Positions 1-13,300 of a stretch of 13,300 nt of DNA are shown piece by piece. The DNA comes from a virus (Duplodnaviria > Heunggongvirae > Uroviricota > Caudoviricetes), in IMG/VR virus record IMGVR_UViG_2681813205_000017, positions 1 to 13,300 of that record; one strand, written 5' to 3'. Every line of letters starts with the position of its first letter. Position 1 is the stretch's first letter. A program made the translations under genes and the position numbers. The notes under the pieces are model-generated. The model did not search any database. It saw nothing but the letters and a program-made list of their open reading frames with translations, and was not told the origin of the DNA.

Positions 1-162
1 ATTACTGCTTCAGGTTGGTGTATTGCTTGCATCTTTCCCTTTTCATTCATAAAGATAGATCAAACAACAAAACCACCACCACCCCCCTGAAAAGGCTCAT
101 AAATAGCGAAAATCCGCGAGGTCTCCGCCCCGTAACAGGTCCATATGCCGGAAAGGACCCGC

Positions 163-184
163 AAAAAAGCCGGATTTCTCCGGC
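163..184 (-). terminator. Intrinsic terminator ending the capsid operon (GCCGGA-GAAA-UCCGGC stem-loop plus U6 on the - strand)
   Basis: 6-bp GC-rich stem with a GNRA tetraloop followed by six U on the - strand RNA, 7 bp downstream of the stop of the 191..604 gene. Confidence 0.7.
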
Positions 185-190
185 CTTGTC

Positions 191-604
191 TCAGATGGTT
201 TTCAGTATGCGATCGATGTCGCCGTCATCGCCCGGGTTTCTGCCATCGTATGCCATGCCAGCTGATACGGCTTGTGGGCTGTGCATGTCCATAAAGTTTT
301 CAAAGGCTGCGGTAAGCTCTGGTGCAACCTTCGGGCGTTCCTGCTCTATGGTCATGTTCAGGATGTTTTTAGCCGTATCAACATCAATACAAGGCACGTT
401 TGCCATTGCACGTAACAGCGGCTGATAGTCGTCAGATTCATGAAGCGCCATAATCGCATCAGCGCGCGGCTTGTCCTTCTCTTCCAGGCTGTTAAGTTGA
501 TATACGGCCTCGTAGGTTGATAAACCTCTGTCAGCCATTGCCCGCGCTTCGGCTTTAAATTTACTCGCCAGCGGTAGCGTCATGATACTTTCATTCGTTG
601 CCAT
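191..604 (-). CDS. Hypothetical protein, last gene of the capsid operon (137 aa)
   Basis: ATG at 604 preceded by a GGGGG Shine-Dalgarno. Starts 13 nt after the stop of the decoration-like gene and is followed by an intrinsic terminator. The + strand ORF 15..425 overlapping it lacks such context. Confidence 0.6.
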   Translation of the reverse strand: MATNESIMTLPLASKFKAEARAMADRGLSTYEAVYQLNSLEEKDKPRADAIMALHESDDYQPLLRAMANVPCIDVDTAKNILNMTIEQERPKVAPELTAAFENFMDMHSPQAVSAGMAYDGRNPGDDGDIDRILKTI

Positions 605-616
605 CGTTCCCCCTGC

Positions 617-952
617 TTATCGCGCCAGCGGCTGAACGGATACGCCAGAACCCGCAAAGGCGGCGCATTTTTTCGCGTCGGTGTCGGCGCTCTCAGGCCA
701 GTTAACGGCGGCAATATTGAATATCCCCGTCTTGTAGCACTGTGCTGATTTCTGCGTCGACGTGTCCACGGGGTACGAGGTCAGATAAACAGCCTTGCCA
801 GATTCCTGACCATCCCACGGCTTAAACTCGCCATTTTCCGCCAGCATCAGCGGGGTAAATTCCTGAATAACGCCAGCATCAGCAGCAAAATGTACCAGCG
901 TCGTGGATACCTGCTGACTACCTGCAAATAACTCAATGTATGGAGTGTCCAT
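617..952 (-). CDS. Head decoration protein, lambda gpD-like (111 aa)
   Basis: Translation shares recalled gpD motifs (TPLML, WDG, YK-G-F, WPE, KK-AFAG-VSV) and similar length. GGGGGG Shine-Dalgarno 5 nt upstream of the ATG. Immediately downstream of the capsid gene. Confidence 0.7.
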   Translation of the reverse strand: MDTPYIELFAGSQQVSTTLVHFAADAGVIQEFTPLMLAENGEFKPWDGQESGKAVYLTSYPVDTSTQKSAQCYKTGIFNIAAVNWPESADTDAKKCAAFAGSGVSVQPLAR

Positions 953-964
953 AGAATCCCCCCG

Positions 965-2020
965 TTAACCAATTTTGACGATAACAAATTTGCGAATATC
1001 TGCCGGTACCGGCTGCGGTGCGCTGTGCGTCTGCACGTACTCAATCGCCGGATCGCCGTCCTCAATCCAGTTTTTCGGGTAAAACATGTTTTGCGTTGCG
1101 CCCGTTCTGACCGCTTCCTGATCCATAATCGCACCATAGGCCACCAGCCCTTTATTGTTGGTGTTACCCAGGACCAGCAAATCAGGCTCAAGGAAATATT
1201 TTTCGGTGCCGTCGCTGTCAGTGTATTTGCCGGAATAGACGACAAGGGCAATATCGCCCAGATAGCCTTTAAAGCTCACCACTTCACCCAGGTTTTTACA
1301 GGCCAGTTCTGCGGCGGATTCTGAACCACGGGAAAGGTCGTACAGTTCGCGGAATTTTTTAAAGCTGCGTAACGTGCGCCATACTTCAGCGCCCATAATC
1401 ATGACGTTTGCGGGGCAATTGCCCTGATCAGCATAAAGCTCGATGTCATAGATTGGATCGTGTGTTTCTTTATCCAGCTCAGACCATTTTTTACCGTCAG
1501 CCTGTTCTATGATATTGCTTTCCGGGATCTTCCAGTCGATTTCATAGCGTTCTATGCCTTCGCCCTCAATGAGGTTTTTTCCGGTCGTTACCGCATTCAC
1601 CGCCAGCCATTCCACGCGTGCCTTAATGGCGTTTATCTGGCGGCGCATGTTGCCAGTAATCAGGCGCATACGGCGATAGGTAGGATCGTTAAGCTGTGCC
1701 GGATCTTCTCCAGCCATGCGCATGATGGTTTTTGTTGGATCGATTTCGTGTTTGGGTTTCATGTAGCCTGGTTTAATCGTGCTGGTTTCGTACCCTTTAT
1801 CGCGCTGGACCTGACTACCCACCATAGGCGAACAGAACGCTGACATCGTAACCTCTTCAATGTCCAGGGTGTCCAGAATGATGTTCTGGGTGTTGAAGGT
1901 CGCCACGTTCGGGAAAAACAGCGTGGTAAACAGCGGACTGAATTTAAATTCTGCAATATCCCCGCGATTCAGGTACGCGAAAAGCTGGTTAGTGTTAAGT
2001 GCCGTTGCTTTGCCTGCCAT
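965..2020 (-). CDS. Major capsid protein, lambda gpE family (351 aa)
   Basis: Translation aligns along its length with recalled lambda gpE (FKF-PLF, PGYMKPKHE, DPTYRRMR, LRSFK, RGSES, VVYSGKY, LVLGNT, YPKNW, GDPA, SAP). GGAGGTG Shine-Dalgarno; start overlaps the upstream stop (TAATG). Confidence 0.85.
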   Translation of the reverse strand: MAGKATALNTNQLFAYLNRGDIAEFKFSPLFTTLFFPNVATFNTQNIILDTLDIEEVTMSAFCSPMVGSQVQRDKGYETSTIKPGYMKPKHEIDPTKTIMRMAGEDPAQLNDPTYRRMRLITGNMRRQINAIKARVEWLAVNAVTTGKNLIEGEGIERYEIDWKIPESNIIEQADGKKWSELDKETHDPIYDIELYADQGNCPANVMIMGAEVWRTLRSFKKFRELYDLSRGSESAAELACKNLGEVVSFKGYLGDIALVVYSGKYTDSDGTEKYFLEPDLLVLGNTNNKGLVAYGAIMDQEAVRTGATQNMFYPKNWIEDGDPAIEYVQTHSAPQPVPADIRKFVIVKIG

Positions 2021-2226
2021 TATTCACCTCCATGCGTCTGATTCATGCCCAGCGCCGCGCGTAAATAGGCGCGGACCTGCCAGCCTGTTGACGGCTCAAC
2101 CATCGCCAGCGGATCAAGTCCTGCCGCAATGCCTGCTTTTACGTTCTGCTGGTGGCGTTCCTTGAGCGCCTTCACGATGTCGGGGCTTATGTACACCGAA
2201 ACACCGCCTTTTTTCTCTTCAGCCAT
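2020..2226 (-). CDS. Hypothetical small protein, first gene of the capsid operon (68 aa)
   Basis: ATG at 2226 with a purine-rich ribosome-binding site. Stop overlaps the capsid start codon (translational coupling). Lies ~55 nt downstream of a near-consensus sigma70 promoter. Confidence 0.6.
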   Translation of the reverse strand: MAEEKKGGVSVYISPDIVKALKERHQQNVKAGIAAGLDPLAMVEPSTGWQVRAYLRAALGMNQTHGGE

Positions 2227-2282
2227 AGTAAGAAATTCCTCTTCGACTTAAAAAATCATAACTGGATGTTTATCCAGTCCTG

Positions 2283-2310
2283 ATTATAATCAGAATTGCA
2301 TTTTATGCAA
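2283..2310 (-). promoter_or_regulatory. Sigma70-type promoter of the capsid operon (-35 TTGCAT, 16-bp spacer, -10 TATAAT on the - strand)
   Basis: On the - strand, TTGCAT (complement of 2305..2310) and TATAAT (complement of 2283..2288) with a 16-bp spacer. Both hexamers sit inside perfect palindromes (TTGCATTTTATGCAA and CTGATTATAATCAG). Confidence 0.55.
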
Positions 2311-2390
2311 TGATATTGAGTTATGTTGCAAATTATGAAATGATTATCCCGATCACGAACGCCAGTGCATCCAAAAACCTCATATGCAAA

Positions 2391-2429
2391 AGCCCGATAA
2401 GAACCCTCTGACCTTATCGGGCTTTTTTT
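2391..2429 (+). terminator. Strong stem-loop with T7 tract (AGCCCGATAAG ... CTTATCGGGCT TTTTTTT); + strand intrinsic terminator geometry, possibly bidirectional
   Basis: 11-bp stem followed by seven T on the + strand. On the - strand the same hairpin is followed by UUUUG. No + strand gene upstream, so it may act mainly as a second - strand terminator or insulator. Confidence 0.5.
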
Positions 2430-2435
2430 GGGCGC

Positions 2436-2457
2436 AAAAAAGCCGGATTGCTCCGGC
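2436..2457 (-). terminator. Intrinsic terminator after the 74-aa gene (GCCGGA-GCAA-UCCGGC plus U6)
   Basis: Same module as 163..184 and 2799..2821 but with a GCAA tetraloop; lies 20 bp downstream of the stop at 2478. Confidence 0.7.
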
Positions 2458-2477
2458 TATGTGTGCTGTGTGCTGGC

Positions 2478-2702
2478 TCAGTCTCTGATCTCTTTCAGAA
2501 ATTCTATCAATGCATCTATCTGTTCAGGATTTACCGCCAGCATTTCACCGGACAGAGCACATCTCACAAAACCATGCTGATCCTTTTCAATCAGTGCGCC
2601 CGTCTCCAGGAATGCGCGGTAATCATTGATGCTCATCGTCTCCATGTTGTCAGCATGGTATTTATCACGCTGTTTTAATATCTCATCAAATTTCATCGGC
2701 AT
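2478..2702 (-). CDS. Hypothetical protein (74 aa), monocistronic moron-like cassette
   Basis: ATG at 2702 preceded by AGAGGA. The gene is bracketed by intrinsic terminators on both sides (2799..2821 upstream, 2436..2457 downstream). Confidence 0.6.
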   Translation of the reverse strand: MPMKFDEILKQRDKYHADNMETMSINDYRAFLETGALIEKDQHGFVRCALSGEMLAVNPEQIDALIEFLKEIRD

Positions 2703-2798
2703 TGTTTTTTTCCTCTGTTGTGTCTGTTTGTTTCAGATAGTAACTATGCCTGACCGTGACGAAAACCCGGTAATGCGCCATACCGTTTCAACTGGTGC

Positions 2799-2821
2799 AA
2801 AAAAAGCCGGATTTCTCCGGC
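2799..2821 (-). terminator. Intrinsic terminator after the PerC-like gene (GCCGGA-GAAA-UCCGGC plus U7)
   Basis: GNRA-tetraloop hairpin plus U-tract on the - strand, 8 bp downstream of the stop at 2829. Confidence 0.7.
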
Positions 2822-2828
2822 TGTTTGA

Positions 2829-3104
2829 TTAGCTGTCCTGGTAATTGCGCCATATTTCATCACCAGCACCATCTATACCCATTTCGGCATAAGTGCGATC
2901 GACTGCCTTTTTCAGGTCTCCGAAATTATCCGGCGGCTCCGGTGCCCTCTGTGCCTTCCTTGAACATTCCAGCCGTCGCATCGTGATGTGATGCCGTTCC
3001 TTGTCTGTCTCCACCAGCTGCATGACTTCACCCCATCGCGCCGCCGCCCTCCGGTAAAAGCCTTTCGCCTCTAGTTCCTCCGCTATGCGGTCATGTACCA
3101 TCGT
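2829..3104 (-). CDS. PerC-family transcriptional regulator (91 aa)
   Basis: N-terminal AEELEAKGFYRRAAARWGEVM matches the recalled PerC/Pch signature (LE-G-WRRAA-RW). The likely start is the ATG at 3104 (GAGGGGG Shine-Dalgarno, 8 nt after the SSB stop) rather than the ORF-track start at 3221, which would overlap ssb by 110 nt. Confidence 0.65.
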   Translation of the reverse strand, partial: TMVHDRIAEELEAKGFYRRAAARWGEVMQLVETDKERHHITMRRLECSRKAQRAPEPPDNFGDLKKAVDRTYAEMGIDGAGDEIWRNYQDS

Positions 3105-3111
3105 CACCCCC

Positions 3112-3522
3112 TCAGAACGAAATATCATCACCGTAAGGGTCATCGCCTCCCGCTGGTGGCTGATTACCCTGTGTGCCTGTGGTTTTGCGTCTGTTCCCGC
3201 CAGGACGTGCCGCACGGGCACTGATTACGCTGTCTGCAATAACCTGATACCCCTGCCGTGTTTCCCCGTTCTGTCCGGTCCACTGGCTTACCTGCATCGT
3301 GCCGGATACGCTGGCAACATCGCCTTTTTGATGTTTAGCCAGGAAATCGGCCTGTTTGCCAAATGCGATAACCGATAACCATAACGTCGCCTGTCCGTCA
3401 TGTGCCTGGCTGCATGGCAACGATACCGCCATACGCGCCAGAGTCATCGGTGTGCCCTTGCTGGTCTGTTTTACCTGCGGGTCGTCCACCAGCCGCCCGT
3501 AAGCGGCTATCTGTGCCGTCAT
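3112..3522 (-). CDS. ssb: Single-stranded DNA-binding protein (136 aa)
   Basis: OB-fold core resembles E. coli SSB (W-x-x-V-x-x-FGK ... KG ... W), followed by a Gly/Gln/Pro-rich linker and an acidic C-terminal tail DDPYGDDISF (E. coli SSB ends DDDIPF). GGAGAGGTG Shine-Dalgarno; ATGA overlap with the upstream gene. Confidence 0.85.
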   Translation of the reverse strand: MTAQIAAYGRLVDDPQVKQTSKGTPMTLARMAVSLPCSQAHDGQATLWLSVIAFGKQADFLAKHQKGDVASVSGTMQVSQWTGQNGETRQGYQVIADSVISARAARPGGNRRKTTGTQGNQPPAGGDDPYGDDISF

Positions 3523-3770
3523 AATTCCACCTCTCCGGTTTTAACGTTGATGGTTGTTACCTGTTCCGCTTCGGCAATCTCCCGTTCTGTCAGCGTGGCA
3601 AAGTTTGCCGCCGCCGTGGTCATGAATGCGCTTATCAGGTCGGGATGTTCCTTCGCGTATCCTTCCCGCGTGTGGCGGTCTATCGTTCTGATTGCCACCT
3701 TTAAGGTGTGCTCAGTCATGTCTAACGCTTTATATTTTGGCTCTGTTCTGTCTCTGCGTTTTTGGGTCAT
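3519..3770 (-). CDS. Hypothetical protein (83 aa from the ATG at 3770; alternative start at 3800 gives 93 aa)
   Basis: ORF translationally coupled to ssb (ATGA overlap). The ATG at 3770 has a GAGAGG ribosome-binding site and avoids overlap with the iterons. Confidence 0.5.
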   Translation of the reverse strand: MTQKRRDRTEPKYKALDMTEHTLKVAIRTIDRHTREGYAKEHPDLISAFMTTAAANFATLTEREIAEAEQVTTINVKTGEVEL

Positions 3771-3782
3771 TTCTCGCAACCT

Positions 3783-3973
3783 CTCACTTTTTCGCCTCAC
3801 TTTTTCAAGCGTCTCACTTCGTCGCAGCTGGGATTTTCGGTTTTTCTATGTGTGTGTTTCATAAGTATTTTTTTACCCCTCACTTTTGAGGATGTATACA
3901 GGTCGAAAAGTGAGGGAGAGCAGGCTAATTTTGGCCCTCTTTCTATCCACCTCGCTTTTGCTCCTCACTTTTA
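3783..3973. repeat. Putative replication origin: six CTCACTT(TT) iterons flanking an AT-rich stretch
   Basis: CTCACTT copies at 3783, 3796, 3813 and 3879, an inverted copy at 3906..3915 (AAAAGTGAGG) and another at 3963, plus a degenerate copy near 3950. AT-rich segment 3836..3876. Lies directly 3' of the helicase gene. Confidence 0.55.
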
Positions 3974-5371
3974 TAGCGGCGCTACATCATCCCCATCGAT
4001 ACGAATAACCCCATCTTTTTCCAGCTTGTACAGCCAGCGCCGGAAGTTTTTCATTTCATACCCCAGCTTTTTCATGTCATCACGTAACAGCGGGATCGTG
4101 CACTTGTCGCCGTTCTGTGTGCGTGAACGGATGCACCCCCATAGCGCGGTATGGTTTTCCGTCTTGTTCCCTGCCTCCTCGATGCGCTCCAGTTCAACAG
4201 GAGGGCGCGGATCATCCACCACCACCAGCGACGTGATTAATTCACCGTCAGCGTCGGTAAAAAGCTCCACCACGCGTAAGTCATATGCGGCTTCTTTGAG
4301 TTCCTCCGCGTCCTTCATTTTGGTGCATGAGATAACCAGCGCTTCGCTTCCTGCGTCCTCCCTGCGTATCCGGTATTCAGCATCCAGCGAAGCACGAAAT
4401 GCACTGGAACCGCGCGCGCCTTTCGTCTCATCCTTGCCGGAATGGTGAACCACCAGCACCGTGGCCCCTGTGCGTCGTTTCAGTTCGTCACAACCACGGA
4501 TAAACGCCCCCATATCACGGGAATCATTTTCATCATTCCCACCAAAGCAACGCGCCAGCGTATCCAGAATAATCATGCGTACAGGTTTACCCGTTTCCCG
4601 CTCCACCTGACGGGCAGCGATAACCATTTCATCAACATCAAGCGGGGCAGCCGGAAAGATGGGGCGGTTTACCAGATACAGATTTTTCACCTGCTCATCG
4701 TGCACAACCTCCCAGGCTTTTACACGACGCGGAACACCTATACCGCCTTCACCAACCACATAGAGAACCGCACCATGTGCAACCCTGCGGCCTCCCCACT
4801 GGCGACCAGTGGCAACATGGCACGCCCACGATCCGGCAAGGAATGATTTATAGGACCCGCTAGCCCCGTATATGCTGCATAGCGATACCGCCGGAATAAT
4901 CCCCTTAACCACGTAATCCAGTTGCGTGTCGTATCCGGTAGATCCAACGCTCATCGGTAGCGTGGTTTTTCGCTGGTGGTTTTTTTCTTCCGCCGGCTCT
5001 TTCCCGCGCACCCGTTCCAGGTATTCGCGCCAGTTCTCCCGCATATGGCTGTGCATCCCTTCGGGGTAATAATTCGCATCAGTTACACCCGCCGCCGCCA
5101 GCTTGTGCGCAATGGCATTAATATTTGATGGCCTGATGTGGCCTGCCTTGTACAGCCGGACACAATAGCGCCCCTCGTCGATGATTCTCAGGTCTGCCAG
5201 TTCATCCAGTTGATCATCAGCCAGCACAACGGGAGGCACATTATCGCCAGCCAGTCGCCCGTCCTGTTCCTGCCACTGTTTCGCATGTGCCCAGGCATCA
5301 CTACCCGCAAAAATAATGACTTCGGTCATCTTGTCGTAAGGCTGTTTTTTTAAGTTCGGTGCGCTTTTCAT
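3971..5371 (-). CDS. Replication initiator / replicative helicase, RecA-fold ATPase (RepA / AAA_25-like), 466 aa
   Basis: Walker A-like GASGSYKS, Walker B-like MIILDTLARCF, and VLVVHHSGKD typical of RepA/DnaB-like helicases of satellites and plasmids. ATGA overlap with the upstream gene; iterons immediately downstream. Confidence 0.75.
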   Translation of the reverse strand: MKSAPNLKKQPYDKMTEVIIFAGSDAWAHAKQWQEQDGRLAGDNVPPVVLADDQLDELADLRIIDEGRYCVRLYKAGHIRPSNINAIAHKLAAAGVTDANYYPEGMHSHMRENWREYLERVRGKEPAEEKNHQRKTTLPMSVGSTGYDTQLDYVVKGIIPAVSLCSIYGASGSYKSFLAGSWACHVATGRQWGGRRVAHGAVLYVVGEGGIGVPRRVKAWEVVHDEQVKNLYLVNRPIFPAAPLDVDEMVIAARQVERETGKPVRMIILDTLARCFGGNDENDSRDMGAFIRGCDELKRRTGATVLVVHHSGKDETKGARGSSAFRASLDAEYRIRREDAGSEALVISCTKMKDAEELKEAAYDLRVVELFTDADGELITSLVVVDDPRPPVELERIEEAGNKTENHTALWGCIRSRTQNGDKCTIPLLRDDMKKLGYEMKNFRRWLYKLEKDGVIRIDGDDVAPL

Positions 5372-5667
5372 TTCTTGCCCCTGAATCCGTTAATCATGGT
5401 TTTCAGCTTCTGGATGTTTGCCCGTGCCCTGGCGTTGCTGGTGGGCACGTTATGCGGCGCGGTCTGTACCAGAGAAAAATCACGCCGGAACTGATAAACA
5501 GGCATCACGCAATCATATTCGTAACCTTCACGGCGGTAGGTTACGCGCCGTTCTTCCACGCCCTTAATCATTACCGTGCCGCCGTACTGGTCGCGGTAAA
5601 TATCACCGCGCGTAAATTTAGGGTGAGTGTTGCCACTGGCAGTTAAGCCAGAATATTTAAGTTTCAT
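5368..5667 (-). CDS. Hypothetical protein (99 aa), translationally coupled to the helicase gene
   Basis: ATG at 5667; stop overlaps the helicase start (ATGA). Basic, Tyr/Arg-rich; no recognisable motif. Confidence 0.55.
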   Translation of the reverse strand: MKLKYSGLTASGNTHPKFTRGDIYRDQYGGTVMIKGVEERRVTYRREGYEYDCVMPVYQFRRDFSLVQTAPHNVPTSNARARANIQKLKTMINGFRGKK

Positions 5668-5672
5668 TATTT

Positions 5673-5906
5673 TTATTCTCCGGTGTGCTGTTCTTTATAT
5701 CTGTCGTGCAATAGATCTATTTCTTGCAGTTCCATTATTACAGGATCAAGAAGCGTTATTAATGCCGTGGCAATTCTTGATTTTTGTTTGTCGCGTTCAT
5801 TGTCGCCAAGTGTTTCAAGCCATATGCGCAATATTTCCAGCATGTTTTCACTGTGAGAAAGTGCAAGAAATGCGCGGTCTATTGTTTGGTGGTAAATATC
5901 ACGCAT
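5673..5906 (-). CDS. Hypothetical protein (77 aa)
   Basis: ATG at 5906 overlaps the stop of the upstream gene (ATGCGTGA). Part of the same coupled gene chain. Confidence 0.55.
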   Translation of the reverse strand: MRDIYHQTIDRAFLALSHSENMLEILRIWLETLGDNERDKQKSRIATALITLLDPVIMELQEIDLLHDRYKEQHTGE

Positions 5907-6357
5907 GGCTTACATCCTCAGGAAATTTTCTTCTATAACGCGCCTCTGCCACATATTCCGCATAATCGGCGGCGATATTCAGTACATCAAGCCCCGTTGA
6001 TTTATATTCTCTCGTGGAAAGTAAGAAAAAAGCCGCTCTAATAAGTTCTGGCATTGACGAAAGCGCATCAGCCGCATCATCAGGAACGCCGGAAAATTCC
6101 TGTTTCAGGGAATTAAAACGATCATCACGCATAACCCCCCCCCCATTTTCACAATCAGCAACAAGAATATTTTTAGCGTCATTCAGCGACCGCGTTGCGG
6201 TGTATCGGATACATTCCAGGGCGAATAGTGTGTATTCTTCCCTTTCTTCCCTTTCTTCCTTTTGTGCAAGCTCTGCTGTGCATTCAATATCAATAAGCGC
6301 GTGCATCAGCGTAGTGAGTGCGGCGGCGGCTGCGTCCGGTGTGGTTTTATTGCACAT
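5899..6357 (-). CDS. Hypothetical acidic protein (153 aa from the ATG at 6357) containing an in-frame G10 tract
   Basis: ATG at 6357 has a GGAGGGG Shine-Dalgarno 3 nt upstream. The ORF-track start at 6411 has no ribosome-binding site and would overlap the upstream gene by 65 nt. Contains an EEREEREE repeat and the Gly-Gly-Gly encoded by the C10 run at 6135..6144. Confidence 0.55.
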   Translation of the reverse strand: MCNKTTPDAAAAALTTLMHALIDIECTAELAQKEEREEREEYTLFALECIRYTATRSLNDAKNILVADCENGGGVMRDDRFNSLKQEFSGVPDDAADALSSMPELIRAAFFLLSTREYKSTGLDVLNIAADYAEYVAEARYRRKFPEDVSHA

Positions 6358-6577
6358 GTACCCCTCCGCATTTTTTTTCGTTAGAAATAAGCGTTCTTCT
6401 TTCCTGTTCATCGATCAGGAATACGCAGACCTCACCGCTAAGGCGTTTAAGTAAGCCGATGATTGCCCCTGATTCGCTGTCGGTCATCATGCCTGGGTAA
6501 TCCTCTGCCAGTGCGCAAATAACTTCGATTTGGTGGGCGCGTTCTACTGCCTGTTGTAGTGTGATTTCCTGGCTCAT
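6347..6577 (-). CDS. Hypothetical protein (76 aa)
   Basis: ATG at 6577 with a GGGGG ribosome-binding site; ATGA overlap with the candidate upstream ORF. Contains an A8 tract on the coding strand. Confidence 0.55.
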   Translation of the reverse strand: MSQEITLQQAVERAHQIEVICALAEDYPGMMTDSESGAIIGLLKRLSGEVCVFLIDEQERRTLISNEKKCGGVHVQ

Positions 6578-6774
6578 AAGCCTACCCCCTGACGAATACG
6601 GGCAGCGAATACCATCACGCAGCCAGCCGGGGATTGCAGGCGTGCTTCCTGTTCGCTGGTGGCCTCAATGGTAATCACGCGCGGTTGTGCAGTGCTCAGG
6701 GCGATAAAACGCCAAATGTATTTATTCAGGTTGTGCGAGTCCCGCCCTTGCGGGTGTGTGGTATGATTTCTCAT
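6574..6774 (-). CDS. Candidate small ORF (66 aa), putative first gene of the early operon
   Basis: Not listed separately in the ORF track; it is the C-terminal end of the spurious 381-aa ORF. ATG at 6774 with a GAGG ribosome-binding site 6 nt upstream; stop overlaps the next start (ATGA); ~100 nt downstream of the predicted - strand promoter. Confidence 0.4.
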   Translation of the reverse strand: MRNHTTHPQGRDSHNLNKYIWRFIALSTAQPRVITIEATSEQEARLQSPAGCVMVFAARIRQGVGL

Positions 6775-6872
6775 AGCTACCTCGATACTCTCGTTATCGT
6801 TGGTGGTTAGAAGCCCCGTTACTGCTCCTACAGTGCGGGGTTTCGTCGTTTCTGCACCTTGCATTAACAAGG

Positions 6873-6950
6873 TGTAAGTAACTTTATTTATAGGTGGCTT
6901 ACATGTCAATGCTTTTATGTAAGACTTTTTATGTGTATATTGTCTTACAC
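6873..6950. promoter_or_regulatory. Divergent switch region: four TGTAAG / CTTACA operator half-sites overlapping a - strand TTGACA-N17-TAAAGT promoter
   Basis: Half-sites at 6873 (TGTAAG), 6898 (CTTACA), 6919 (TGTAAG) and 6945 (CTTACA), alternating in orientation. On the - strand a perfect -35 TTGACA (complement of 6904..6909) and a -10 TAAAGT (complement of 6881..6886) with a 17-bp spacer. Confidence 0.5.
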
Positions 6951-6970
6951 TTTCATTGAGAGGATTACAG

Positions 6971-7276
6971 ATGGCTACAGGTTCAAAAAACGCAAAATCA
7001 CAATCACTGACAGCTCGGATCCCGCATGATGTTATTGAAGGCATGGAATCCGTAAAACTGGACGGTGAAAGCAACGCCGGATTCATAGTAACCGCCATGC
7101 GCGGTGAAATCGCCCGCCGCCAGGCAGAAGGAAGCGGAGAAAACCTCCTGATTTCTTCGCTCAATGCACTGGCGCAGGTGGAAAAACTCGGAATCAAAGC
7201 CGCCGAGGAGATCGGGCAGCTCGTCACTGTCGCACGTGAAGAACTCCAGCGCCGCAAGACTAAAGAACCAGAGTAA
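6971..7276 (+). CDS. Putative transcriptional regulator, candidate repressor of the early operon (101 aa)
   Basis: ATG at 6971 with a GAGAGGA Shine-Dalgarno. Divergent from the - strand operon and immediately downstream of the operator cluster. Function is inferred from position only. Confidence 0.55.
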   Translation: MATGSKNAKSQSLTARIPHDVIEGMESVKLDGESNAGFIVTAMRGEIARRQAEGSGENLLISSLNALAQVEKLGIKAAEEIGQLVTVAREELQRRKTKEPE

Positions 7277-7318
7277 TCACCATCAGCGCCGTGGTGTAAG
7301 GTATTACGGCGCATTGCT

Positions 7319-7507
7319 ATGCAGGACAACACAATGACCGATAAAGAATTGACCAAAACATTATCACCGGCACGGAAAAGACGGCGCAGAAAGATAGAGC
7401 ATGAATCAGAAAGATTCGCGCCATGTGCTTTTGCCCTTGAGCAATTCCTTAAAGAGTACAGGGAAAAGCGCTCATTGCAGGTATGGCAACGAACTGAACC
7501 AGACTGA
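7319..7507 (+). CDS. Small basic protein (62 aa; alternative start at 7334)
   Basis: ORF following the regulator on the same strand, with a Lys/Arg-rich stretch (ARKRRRRK). Followed by an intrinsic terminator at 7603..7630. Confidence 0.4.
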   Translation: MQDNTMTDKELTKTLSPARKRRRRKIEHESERFAPCAFALEQFLKEYREKRSLQVWQRTEPD

Positions 7508-7602
7508 TAGCATTGCCCACCAGCCTGATAGCGACTATCATTGCCGTTCTTATGTTTGGGATCACACACACAAACGGCGCAGCGGGTTATCTGTTCAGAA
7601 AG

Positions 7603-7630
7603 GCGGCTCCATTTCGGGGCCGCTTTTTTT
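7603..7630 (+). terminator. Intrinsic terminator for the + strand regulator genes
   Basis: GCGGCUCC ... GGGGCCGC stem (one G-U wobble) with a 5-nt loop, followed by seven T. Confidence 0.6.
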
Positions 7631-7776
7631 ATGTCTGAAAAACCCCAATTTTGTTGTTTTTCAGTTTCACCAGGGCGAACGAATCCCCGCCCACGTTCTG
7701 GCGTATATTCAATCTTCATGGTTATAGCTCTGTGTTCAGATGATTGATGTGTGGCGGCTGCGTGCCGCCAGCGTGA

Positions 7777-7965
7777 TTAATGAACTGCCTTGCAGCTATC
7801 CTTCCAGGCCAGAACCTCGGATAAAGACCAGCCAACGGAACGACCGCCAAGTTTACGACGTGATGGGAATTGTCCGGCCTTTTCCAGGCGGTAGCGACAC
7901 GTACGGCTAAGGCCGGTTAGTTTTTCGCATTCTTTTTCACGTATAAACCGATCAGTGCTTAACAC
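7777..7965 (-). CDS. alpA: AlpA-family phage regulator / excisionase-like protein (62 aa from GTG at 7965)
   Basis: CEKLTGLSRTCRYRLEKAGQFP ... GGRSVGWSLSEVLAWK matches the AlpA helix-turn-helix signature. The ORF track starts at a TTG at 8046, but a GTG at 7965 has an AGGGGGG Shine-Dalgarno and gives the typical AlpA length. Confidence 0.75.
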   Translation of the reverse strand: MLSTDRFIREKECEKLTGLSRTCRYRLEKAGQFPSRRKLGGRSVGWSLSEVLAWKDSCKAVH

Positions 7966-8238
7966 TATTGCCCCCCTTTCGTTTCTTAAAGAGTCATCAG
8001 GTGTCTTATTGTGTCGTATTGTTCCCGCTAGAGTGATGAATGGCAAATATTGAGGATGTATGATTTACAGAAAATGAAACAGTAAGAATAAAATCTTTTA
8101 AATTCATGTTAATACAAAGGCATAAAATATTGTTTCATGCCTTTTTTCTCACGCGTTAAAGCGTTATTCGCTAATGTATAAAAAAACAGTCACACAAATA
8201 AAATCAGTCACTTATAAACCTGTGTACTTTTTCGCCTC

Positions 8239-8288
8239 TTGTTCGTGGTTGTTCCACGTTGTTTCACATTGTTCGCCGTTGTATCTGT
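8239..8288. repeat. Five tandem 10-bp units each beginning TTGT (helically phased) between int and alpA
   Basis: TTGTTCGTGG TTGTTCCACG TTGTTTCACA TTGTTCGCCG TTGTATCTGT, an exact 10-bp period. Confidence 0.6.
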
Positions 8289-8330
8289 GTGCTTATCCAG
8301 TATGCGCATACTGAAAAAACACGAAAAAAA

Positions 8331-9548
8331 TTATTTTCTTCTGGCTGCTGGTAGTGCGGTTACGTTTTCATGTGTTCCCGCCAGTATCCCTAACCGCTCC
8401 ATCCACATATCCAGCGCATTGCGTTTAGCATCCAGATAACGGGAATGATTATAAACTCGCTGCATTCCTGGCATCTGGTGGCCTGTAAGCTGCTCCACGA
8501 CATGCGGATCAACGCCTAAATCGTTCAGCATGGTTGTAAAGGTGCGCCGGATGTCATGCAGTGACCAGTGAGGATGATTAAGCCTCCTGTGCGCTAATCT
8601 TCCATACTGCGATACGCTGGCCTCCTGTTTCACTTCCCCCAGCAATAAGCCCGTGTGCCTGTTCTGCTCCACCAGCTGCGTGACGAACGGCAGTATTGCT
8701 TCCGGTATGGGCCGGAATATTGCCACCTTCGTTTTGCTGTGTTCTTTCGGCACGGTCCAGAGCATTTCGGTAAAATCCCACTCGCTGATCTCCGATAACC
8801 TCAGTTCTACCGTCCGGCATCCGAACACAATCAGGAGGCGGATTAACGCGATGTAGTAGGGGGAGAATATTTTTTTGTCCAGTGCCTGCAATAATTCGCC
8901 CAGTTCTTTGGTGCTTAAGACACGCTCGCTTATATCCGGTTTTTTCCCAACGTCCGCCACACTCATATCATCAAGAACGTTGCTGATTGCATAGCGCCGC
9001 CTCCGGCAGAACTTAAGCGCCTGTTTGCACGTCTGTAGCAAGAATCCGGCAGTAACAGGCGTTCGCTTTGCCACCTGGTCAAAACAGGCCAGCCAGTGCC
9101 GTAGCTCGCATTTATCCAGCGGCATAGCACCAATGTGCTGTATTACGTGATTATTAAGTCGCCTTTTCAGGGCGATATAATCCACGCGGTTTTCCTTTAC
9201 GTAATACTCAAGCCAGTAGGTGAGCGCATCGCCAACCGTTACGGGCTTTAACGCTTCCTGTACGGTGTAATTCATCTCATGACGTGGATTTTTCCCCTCA
9301 GCCAGCCATGTGCGACACTGTGCGGCTTTTTCCCTGGCTGCTTTCAGGCTCAGATCAGGATAACTTCCCAGCTTAATGCGTTCGGGTCGTGTCTCCCTTC
9401 CCGTTCCGGCCCTGTATGTGAAATACCAGGTCAATTTCCCTGATGTTAAATATTTCACGCTCAGGTTTCCGCCATCACTATAAAACGTGTTTTTCTCCGC
9501 TGGCTTACCATGAAGTTTCCTTAGCAAGGTATCGCTCAGTTTGTTCAT
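8331..9548 (-). CDS. int: Tyrosine integrase, P4-like family
   Basis: N-terminal arm-binding-type motif (KPAEKNTFYSDGGNLSVKYL), C-terminal catalytic region with HDIRRT and VYNHSRY (R, H-x-x-R, Y). Start is probably the ATG at 9548 (MNKLSD...); the ORF track uses a GTG at 9560. It is the outermost island gene next to the junction. Confidence 0.85.
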   Translation of the reverse strand: MNKLSDTLLRKLHGKPAEKNTFYSDGGNLSVKYLTSGKLTWYFTYRAGTGRETRPERIKLGSYPDLSLKAAREKAAQCRTWLAEGKNPRHEMNYTVQEALKPVTVGDALTYWLEYYVKENRVDYIALKRRLNNHVIQHIGAMPLDKCELRHWLACFDQVAKRTPVTAGFLLQTCKQALKFCRRRRYAISNVLDDMSVADVGKKPDISERVLSTKELGELLQALDKKIFSPYYIALIRLLIVFGCRTVELRLSEISEWDFTEMLWTVPKEHSKTKVAIFRPIPEAILPFVTQLVEQNRHTGLLLGEVKQEASVSQYGRLAHRRLNHPHWSLHDIRRTFTTMLNDLGVDPHVVEQLTGHQMPGMQRVYNHSRYLDAKRNALDMWMERLGILAGTHENVTALPAARRK

Positions 9549-9584
9549 TGCTCTGCTCACGTTTTACCCCCTCTTTACGAAAAA

Positions 9585-9650
9585 GTGACTACACCAGTGA
9601 CTACACCGATCGTTGCACAAAGGGCTACAACGTGAAACAAGCTGGAACAA
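9585..9650. promoter_or_regulatory. int upstream region with a 12-bp tandem repeat (GTGACTACACC x2) and four 10-bp phased units ending ACAA; candidate arm-type or regulator binding sites
   Basis: GTGACTACACCA GTGACTACACCG at 9585..9608. CGTTGCACAA AGGGCTACAA CGTGAAACAA GCTGGAACAA at 9611..9650, which is the reverse complement motif of the array at 8239..8288. Confidence 0.45.
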
Positions 9651-9757
9651 GGAAAATCACAAATCTGTTGATAATCAAAAACATAATGCACAGCCTGAAA
9701 CATTATGAAACAGCAAAAAACACTAAATGATAAAATGCTGTTATTCTTAACCCGCTG

Positions 9758-10642
9758 GTGCAACACATGGTCCGCTGGCGAGTGCCGCGTGTACTGGCGG
9801 TGTCGATTTTGATGACCATCATCGTGATGGCGATGGTGTTGCTATTAGCTTATCTGGGTTCCGCGCTCAACGAGTTGACGCGGACGTTACCGCAATATCG
9901 CAACTCTATTATGACGCCGCTGCAAGCTCTTGAGCCGTTGTTGCAACGCGTAGGGATTGACGTCTCAGTTGACCAGCTGGCGCATTACATTGATCCGAAC
10001 GCGGCGATGACGTTGCTCACCAACTTATTGACGCAGTTATCTAATGCCATGTCATCAATATTTTTATTGCTGCTGACGGTGCTGTTTATGCTGCTCGAAG
10101 TGCCACAATTGCCCGGAAAATTTCAGCAAATGATGGCGCGTCCGGTTGAAGGGATGGCGGCGATTCAACGTGCAATTGACAGTGTTTCTCATTATCTGGT
10201 GCTGAAAACAGCCATCAGCATCATCACCGGCCTGGTCGCCTGGGCGATGCTCGCCGCACTCGATGTTCGCTTCGCTTTTGTCTGGGGATTGCTGGCCTTT
10301 GCGCTTAATTACATCCCTAATATTGGTTCAGTTCTCGCGGCAATCCCCCCTATCGCTCAGGTACTGGTGTTTAATGGCTTCTACGAAGCGTTGCTGGTGC
10401 TGGCGGGATATCTGCTGATTAATCTGGTCTTCGGCAATATTCTGGAGCCGCGCATCATGGGACGTGGGCTGGGGCTTTCCACATTGGTGGTATTTTTGTC
10501 GTTGATTTTTTGGGGATGGTTGTTAGGACCGGTGGGTATGCTGCTTTCCGTGCCGTTAACAATTATTGTCAAAATTGCGCTTGAACAAACAGCGGGAGGT
10601 CAAAGCATCGCCGTTCTGTTAAGCGATCTCAATAAAGAGTGA
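9758..10642 (+). CDS. tqsA: AI-2 exporter TqsA (YdgG), 5'-truncated by the island insertion (294 codons retained)
   Basis: Translation matches recalled E. coli TqsA from its internal [15 protein letters not shown] segment to the C-terminal SDLNKE. An in-frame TAA at 9731..9733 lies directly upstream and there is no native N-terminus or ribosome-binding site. The ORF-track start is an internal GTG. Confidence 0.8.
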
Positions 10643-10662
10643 CGGCCTCCGCAGAGGCCGTC
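10641..10662. terminator. Shared stem-loop between convergent tqsA and pntB (GACGGCCTC-cgca-GAGGCCGTC)
   Basis: 9-bp perfect GC-rich inverted repeat lying exactly between the two stop codons. Confidence 0.55.
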
Positions 10663-10666
10663 AGGG

Positions 10667-12058
<1,392 letters not shown>

Positions 12059-12065
12059 TTACCCC

Positions 12066-13300
<1,235 letters not shown>

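Follow-up and report, generated by a model that had tools for sequence, protein, structure and literature searches.

The closest described relative of the locus analysed here is EcCICFT073, the model phage-inducible chromosomal island (PICI) of Gram-negative bacteria, in which c1499 was described as a putative capsid gene and c1500 as a head decoration gene (Fillol-Salom et al. 2018, PMC6092414), and whose c1501 product is listed as 137 amino acids (aa) long in the supplementary table of that study (PMC6092414). A capsid gene is found in 21 of the 29 reference Gram-negative PICIs and is dispensable for helper-assisted transfer (PMC10111431). Our subject is a four-gene capsid operon on the minus strand at 191-2226 of IMG/VR virus record IMGVR_UViG_2681813205_000017, positions 1 to 13,300 of which form the stretch analysed (hereafter the window); all coordinates are positions in this window of 13,300 nucleotides (nt). 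The window element is a classical Gram-negative PICI of the EcCICFT073 family, and the operon is its late (packaging-zone) operon, an identification based on orthologues 94-97% identical, the backbone genes, a split tqsA gene and a lambda-like cos. The operon is already known, as the capsid and decoration genes of EcCICFT073-type PICIs were reported in 2018, and an earlier note on this DNA, which presented the arrangement as unusual, misjudged a feature that is both described and common. The present analysis adds a scaffold homology for c1501, selection data for the conserved genes, the occurrence of the first three genes in Salmonella and Pluralibacter satellites, and the context of cos and a Nu1-like small terminase (TerS).

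All four genes have EcCICFT073 orthologues of equal length (68, 351, 111 and 137 aa, sharing 97.1, 95.7, 95.5 and 94.2% identity, respectively), and gene order, terminator, cos and backbone are the same in both islands. The two differ in that the window island lies in tqsA whereas EcCICFT073 occupies the phoQ/roxA site, in that the window island carries a RepA-type helicase in place of the CFT073 primase, and in that, going by identical flanks in its relatives, it would carry a 180-aa Nu1-like TerS where CFT073 encodes the 144-aa RppA. Relatives at the tqsA site span 11-12.3 kb between their att sites; 9.6 kb of the window island lie inside the window, its left end being outside, and no tail, lysis, portal, protease or large terminase (TerL) genes were found in the window island or in the full-length relatives. 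The dependence on helper-phage head machinery proposed earlier from the satellite-type arrangement agrees well with an EcCICFT073-family PICI that has int, AlpA, a replication module and cos. EcCICFT073, 95% identical, has been mobilised experimentally by a helper (PMC6092414). The best whole-window match among complete E. coli genomes is to E. coli 042 (97.4%), whose island at the tqsA site showed no transfer from the native strain (PMC6092414).

The operon itself consists of four closely spaced genes in the open reading frame (ORF) list, all on the minus strand, in the order 68-aa gene (2020-2226, orthologous to the CFT073 gene directly upstream of c1499), major capsid gene of the lambda gpE family (965-2020, 351 aa, c1499 orthologue), head decoration (cement) gene of the lambda gpD family (617-952, 111 aa, c1500 orthologue) and a scaffold-like 137-aa gene (191-604, c1501 orthologue). 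A strong intrinsic terminator, GGCCGGAGAAATCCGGCT plus a T-run, closes it at 163-185 (minus, -17.5 kcal/mol, z -3.0), so the ORFs and the terminator that had been described from the sequence were both found. The stop codon of the 68-aa gene overlaps the capsid start codon, for which reason these two genes are probably translationally coupled; with the remaining two intergenic gaps being 12 nt each, a single operon for the four genes is therefore plausible.

Homology of the two head proteins to gpE and gpD, claimed beforehand from the letters alone, was borne out by profile search, in which both scored above the curated gathering cut-offs: Pfam Phage_cap_E is matched almost end to end by the 351-aa protein (profile positions 14-328 of 329, E 8.8e-50, 170 bits against a cut-off of 22.9), and Pfam HDPD, the lambda gpD family, by the 111-aa protein (E 1e-17, 64.8 bits against 29.1). 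BLASTP to lambda agrees, with 44% identity to gpE over 328 residues (E 1e-92) and 38% identity to gpD (E 2e-14). Together with the C-terminus of the scaffold and the lambda-like cos, these homologies tie the operon to the Nu3-D-E genes of lambda and to Gifsy-1 and phage 21, yet the arrangement differs in several ways. Lambda and Gifsy-1 have protease/scaffold, then D, then E, whereas E precedes D in the window operon and in its Salmonella and Pluralibacter relatives, and the 137-aa scaffold-like gene stands last, which confirms the reversed order noted earlier. The scaffold-like protein of the window is free-standing and 137 aa long, whereas the phage scaffold is the C-terminal part of the protease gene; and compared with lambda the window operon comes without portal, protease, TerL, W, FI and FII and with an extra 68-aa gene coupled to the capsid gene. 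Neither the ORF list nor a Pfam profile search revealed a portal, protease or large terminase gene anywhere in the window. The earlier statement that there is no portal, protease or terminase therefore stands for the operon; for the island type it fails, cos being followed there by a Nu1-like TerS or an Rpp gene.

The 137-aa protein, for which no Pfam or NCBIfam family was found, matches the C-terminal end of lambdoid scaffolds. The matches comprise phrog_53 (PHROG 'head maturation protease') at positions 494-567 of 583 (E 6.7e-9), the Gifsy-1 gpC homologue at residues 411-480 of 498 (E 8e-8) and, among 1.8 billion representative proteins searched, P0072, a protein of 195 aa in which the scaffold repeat occurs three times (E 2.7e-6). 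A profile-profile comparison with hhalign, whose target was the scaffold ends of Gifsy-1 gpC, the P0072 protein and lambda Nu3, aligned residues 45-119 over 72 columns with a probability of 96.1% (E 3.3e-9), while the match to lambda Nu3 alone was weak (E 0.026). The homology covers roughly the last third of the phage scaffold. The alignment points to two copies of a helical repeat followed by a conserved F-x-x-F-M-x-x-H-S-P tail, and the same tail also ends the protease-scaffold proteins of the Gifsy-1/phage 21 type (the Nu3/gp6 equivalent). Because of these profile, hidden Markov model (HMM) and tail matches, our reading of the c1501-type protein is that of a putative free-standing mini-scaffold that descends from the C-terminus of a protease-scaffold gene of the phage 21/Gifsy type. 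The nearest phage relatives of the 137-aa protein and of the capsid protein belong to the same Gifsy-1/phage 21 group. Of the two products that had been put forward as scaffold candidates, the 137-aa protein is thus the one for which the proposal gained support.

A structure model of the 137-aa protein is all-helical with low confidence (pLDDT 64), and a fold search with this low-confidence model returned no match; tblastn against phage genomes likewise gave nothing at E 0.01 or better, the homology being visible only to profile and HMM methods. Equivalence to lambda FI, the product of the gene after E in lambda, was rejected for want of similarity, as was the NCBI name of the family, 'phage head-tail connector protein', which has no profile support and probably derives from the phage 21 name 'head-tail preconnector gp5 [contains scaffold gp6]', as in the annotation of Gifsy-1. 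In the Salmonella and Pluralibacter elements the fourth gene encodes 68 and 77 aa, respectively; these two products resemble one another (E 2e-6), but neither could be linked significantly to the 137-aa protein or Nu3. For the 68-aa protein encoded at the head of the window operon, no relatives were detected outside these islands; its gene is always directly in front of the capsid gene, structure prediction models the protein as two helices, and the idea that it is a ribbon-helix-helix regulator found no support.

Of 5426 complete E. coli genomes, 598 (about 11%, or one in nine) contain the four-gene block, 592 of them with at least 80% coverage, and there are up to five copies per genome. Intactness and selection were assessed in 80 IMG/VR islands found by a capsid-protein match, four annotated islands and the window. 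The decoration gene was intact in 83/83, the 68-aa gene in 84/85 and the 137-aa gene in 74/81, and the capsid gene in 85/85, a figure biased by the collection of loci through a match to that gene. Mean pairwise ratios of non-synonymous to synonymous substitution (dN/dS) between distinct alleles were 0.13 for the capsid, 0.095 for the decoration, 0.25 for the 68-aa and 0.27 for the 137-aa gene, and all four genes are under purifying selection. Losses of the 137-aa gene are deletions in loci L040, L046, L047, L057 and L088 and a frameshift or stop in L037 and L053; the internal deletions leave the last 18-27 codons.

The trio of 68-aa, capsid and decoration genes recurs in the same order in PICI-like elements of Salmonella and Pluralibacter that have different integrases and primases. 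Between E. coli, Salmonella and Pluralibacter, the satellite capsid proteins share 67-68% identity, whereas the best phage capsid match is 46-47% identical and none among 50,697 phage records exceeds 47%, which points to a long-standing satellite lineage as opposed to a recent capture. The four genes are maintained and satellite-specific, and are not recent debris. The capsid gene was also sought in two scans of species-representative genomes, without a match. The Salmonella island (L010, contig SRR12826347_214, 157-2541) directly follows a 375-aa fragment that contains a GpA_ATPase (large terminase) domain; it probably represents a helper-embedded PICI that integrated into a prophage's terminase gene. 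In Pluralibacter gergoviae, two independent assemblies (L008, 9207-10270; L009, 7785-8838) carry a frameshift in the capsid gene with the 68-aa and decoration genes intact.

Directly beyond the operon terminator, a lambda-like cos with equivalents of the cosQ region and cosN lies at 86-165 (minus) and aligns to lambda cos from -35 to +45, with a cosN-like 12-mer at 119-130 and a similarity to lambda that ends before the cosB R sites. The 12-mer is GGGCGGAGACCT in the window and in the island of E. coli O26, and GGGCGGCGACCT, as in lambda, in CFT073, 042 and JNEC-KY179, so that the window differs from lambda at one base. The published description of the EcCICFT073 cos is in agreement with the window cos (PMC6739421). 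In related islands cos is conserved with a TerS or Rpp gene next to it. The terminal 190 nt of the window are identical to the O26 island and nearly so to JNEC-KY179, and in both of these a 180-aa gene begins 16 nt beyond window position 1, after cos; its product matches Pfam Phage_Nu1 (E 7.9e-23) and is 36% identical to lambda Nu1 along its entire length, and the aligned part includes the end with which lambda Nu1 binds the large terminase. As the flanks are identical up to window position 1, we infer that a Nu1-like TerS follows the cos of the window island too. The same slot is occupied by the 144-aa RppA in CFT073 and 042, and a comparison of 87 loci, made up of 85 E. coli/IMG-VR islands and the elements from Salmonella and Pluralibacter, put the Nu1-like gene in about 43 of them and RppA in about 20. 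After this slot, relatives have a 93-aa gene and then the other half of tqsA. A complete head module immediately left of the window, which would have changed the picture drawn by the earlier note, was looked for and is absent from the island type with the identical left flank.

A question already recognised in the field is what maintains capsid genes, under purifying selection and in about 11% of E. coli genomes, in a satellite whose DNA is packaged into helper heads. A scaffold-derived c1501 makes the gene set look like a coherent shell-building kit. We put forward, at somewhat less than an even chance, that the four genes are a satellite-owned kit of shell parts used with the portal, protease and large terminase of the helper. 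Following the course of lambda head assembly, from which we infer the steps, a lambdoid helper would induce the island, and the satellite capsid protein would assemble on the helper portal, aided by the mini-scaffold and possibly by the 68-aa partner; the helper protease would clear the scaffold, the island TerS or Rpp would steer the helper large terminase to the island cos and the head would be filled; the satellite decoration protein would then stabilise the expanded shell, and helper connectors and tails would complete the particle. The proposal is favoured by capsid and decoration proteins that are full-length homologues of those of lambda, by the scaffold end kept in the 137-aa protein, by the purifying selection and intact frames of the genes and their long-standing satellite lineage, by a module that directly adjoins cos and the TerS or Rpp gene, and by other strains with the same attB and backbone that carry a complete capsid-forming head module in that very slot. 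The more specific claim that a minimal three- or four-part kit (capsid, cement, mini-scaffold and 68-aa partner) builds a shell of its own on a stolen portal we regard as possible but doubtful. If it were true, the island would stand, as a functioning intermediate, between satellites that take over entire heads and capsid-forming PICIs that take tails only, and the kit would let islands exploit helpers with a defective, limiting or interrupted capsid gene.

Several findings weigh against a shell kit of this type, most of them from published experiments on EcCICFT073. Deleting either c1499 or c1500 left both lambda interference and transfer by the resident helper as they were; lambda and phi80 gave good transfer of an island that carried cat in place of c1499; and the DNA packaged with lambda was phage-sized (all PMC6092414). 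The satellite shell is 44% identical to that of the helper, and its use of the helper portal and protease is hypothetical. About 9% of sampled islands have lost the 137-aa gene with capsid and decoration genes kept intact, the capsid gene of the Pluralibacter satellite is frameshifted, and the full intactness of the capsid gene carries the sampling bias given above. The kit would be redundant with a fully competent helper and useful where the helper capsid is limiting, defective or interrupted, and such redundancy would account for the knock-outs reported without a phenotype. Helper-embedded PICIs that interrupt gene E (PMC10111431) are one case where the kit would matter. The c1501 assignment suggests transfer from helpers lacking E, D or Nu3 as a direct test, which was not found in the literature examined. 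The possibility that the absence of a phenotype is an artefact of c1501::tetA was considered separately and rejected, as the primer sequences show tetA to lie precisely after the stop codon of c1501 and before its terminator.

A second explanation, which we think unlikely, is interference or size redirection, in which the divergent capsid protein and the short scaffold would compete with those of the helper and poison or resize the heads of particular phages. SaPI1 CpmB is a short scaffold mimic and SaPIbov5 Ccm a capsid-protein homologue, and both act on helper head assembly; CpmB is reportedly a short alternative scaffold with the capsid-binding end of the helper scaffold. The design of the 137-aa protein, which keeps only the last repeats and the tail of the phage scaffold, matches this logic. 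CpmB and Ccm are, however, unrelated in sequence to the window proteins, and they redirect capsid size, which is unseen for EcCICFT073 with lambda. In favour are also the size of the island genome, about a quarter of lambda's, and the small heads made by PmCI172, another Gram-negative PICI with a capsid homologue (PMC6092414). Set against this are the phage-sized DNA packaged with lambda and the lack of relief upon deletion of c1499 or c1500, as well as the finding that c1503 (RppA) was the only gene to block lambda and phi80 among those expressed singly (PMC6739421), and a decoration protein has no obvious poisoning role. The capsid remodelling or size redirection suggested in the earlier note is accordingly not supported by the published tests, which were made on orthologues 94-97% identical to the window proteins.

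The genes could also be captured helper late genes with no present function, a leftover or 'backup copy' from ancestors that were embedded in gene E of a helper. This fits the absence of a phenotype for c1499 and c1500, the dispensable capsid gene and the published proposal that PICIs capture late genes (PMC10111431), the loss of the 137-aa gene in some islands and the frameshifted Pluralibacter capsid gene. It is made improbable by dN/dS values of 0.1-0.27 across dozens of alleles with frames intact almost everywhere, by a trio, promoter and leader common to three genera, and by the lack of any phage source above 47% identity for a module carried by hundreds of E. coli genomes.

A role outside the particle, with the proteins acting as decoys or triggers of phage defence, or with the 68-aa protein as a regulator and the capsid fold reused, is more improbable still. 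Defence and accessory functions are common on PICIs, no relatives of the 68-aa protein were detected beyond the islands, and the regulatory region is unusually conserved; but the sequences look like those of ordinary shell, cement and scaffold proteins, the position by cos and TerS or Rpp points to packaging, and the ribbon-helix-helix idea went unsupported. That the element is a degraded lambdoid prophage, as its lambdoid capsid, decoration, Nu1-like and cos parts might imply, is effectively refuted by a size, order and content that match PICIs (int, AlpA, primase or helicase and PerC, with no tail or lysis genes), by the occurrence of the same compact element at several att sites in hundreds of genomes, and by the helper mobilisation of EcCICFT073.

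Capsid-forming PICIs (cf-PICIs) of the EcCIEDL933 type share with the window island the int/AlpA/replication backbone, the tqsA attB and the placing of head genes in the slot after PerC (10.1101/2022.09.08.507074). They have a full HK97-type set of capsid, protease, portal, connectors, HNH, TerS and TerL, whereas the window island has gpE-type shell parts only; it lacks the defining genes of a cf-PICI, as no portal, protease, connectors or large terminase were found in the window or in full-length relatives. cf-PICIs have been shown to build small capsids of their own. In E. coli O26 RM8426 (L002), which has an identical tqsA junction (window 9300-10100), a cf-PICI with a complete HK97-type head module replaces the gpE/gpD operon, so that head modules are swapped on a common int/AlpA/replication backbone. 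The P4 satellite uses the helper capsid protein only and has a decoration protein of its own, Psu. The window island resembles P4 in owning a decoration protein, but Psu is unrelated to gpD.

Upstream of the operon, a promoter-like element was read from the sequence at 2283-2310 (minus), with TTGCAT at 2310-2305, a 16-nt spacer and a perfect TATAAT at 2288-2283. An inverted repeat, ATTGCAT-AAA-ATGCAAT, overlaps the -35 region of this predicted promoter, and the pattern TTGC...TGCAAT...TTATAATCA is invariant across the E. coli, Salmonella and Pluralibacter elements and in the 87 loci. About 25 nt before the start codon a leader hairpin, ACTGGATAAACATCCAGT plus a T-run (2250-2278, minus, -13.8 kcal/mol, z -4.2), is kept in all three genera and may be a terminator or attenuator; a few variants of its outer stem have compensatory changes and most are without them. 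The whole noncoding stretch 2250-2345 (minus) is conserved across the satellites of the three genera, in which the proteins are 60-68% identical. A copy of a phage late promoter was rejected as its origin, since a distant blastn search of the promoter region against the 50,697 phage records gave no match, and a LexA box was rejected too, the CTG-N8-CAG palindrome having the wrong spacing and not being conserved in Salmonella.

Two tandem terminator hairpins lie between the 74-aa gene and the operon (2388-2458, minus, -34.3 kcal/mol, z -4.4). A near-identical hairpin, GCCGGAG-AAT-CCGGC plus a T-run, occurs three times on the minus strand, at 2805-2822, 2441-2458 and 163-185, following PerC, the 74-aa gene and the 137-aa gene, respectively. 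Because identical terminators repeat along the late zone, its expression may depend on antitermination or on control of read-through.

The remaining island genes are all co-directional with the operon on the minus strand, and the backbone block from int to the 74-aa gene spans 2478-9560, as defined by Pfam matches and the layout of relatives. It comprises int, a tyrosine integrase (8331-9560, Arm-DNA-bind_3 and Phage_integrase), the regulator AlpA (7777-8046, Pfam Phage_AlpA, E 1.5e-16), a DUF4222 protein (5368-5667, Pfam), a RepA-like helicase (3971-5371, AAA_25), an SSB (3112-3522, Pfam), a PerC-family protein (within 2829-3221, Pfam) and the 74-aa gene itself (2478-2702, an ORF), with further small genes between the AlpA and DUF4222 zones; the layout is equal in CFT073, 042, O26 and JNEC-KY179. 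A 381-aa ORF at 6574-7719 (minus) occupies the zone that in related islands contains Icd-like, YlcI/YnfO and truncated hypothetical genes, and the window is about 340 nt longer than the O26 island around it; this reading frame may have arisen by fusion or be an artefact of the ORF caller.

The 3' part of tqsA, split by the island, lies on the plus strand at 9758-10642 and matches Pfam AI-2E_transport from profile position 40 onward; it is without its first ~50 codons and is followed by pntB and pntA. In relatives, tqsA is annotated as N-terminally truncated and the 5' fragment is found at the far end of the island. The same tqsA junction is present in 042, JNEC-KY179 and RM8426, and the element occurs at two places in the chromosome, in tqsA and in the phoQ/roxA interval, as seen in strains 97-3250, 042, JNEC-KY179 and CFT073. 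Between the integrase start and the tqsA junction, a tandem direct repeat of two copies of GTGACTACACC at 9585-9612 may be an integrase arm-type binding site.

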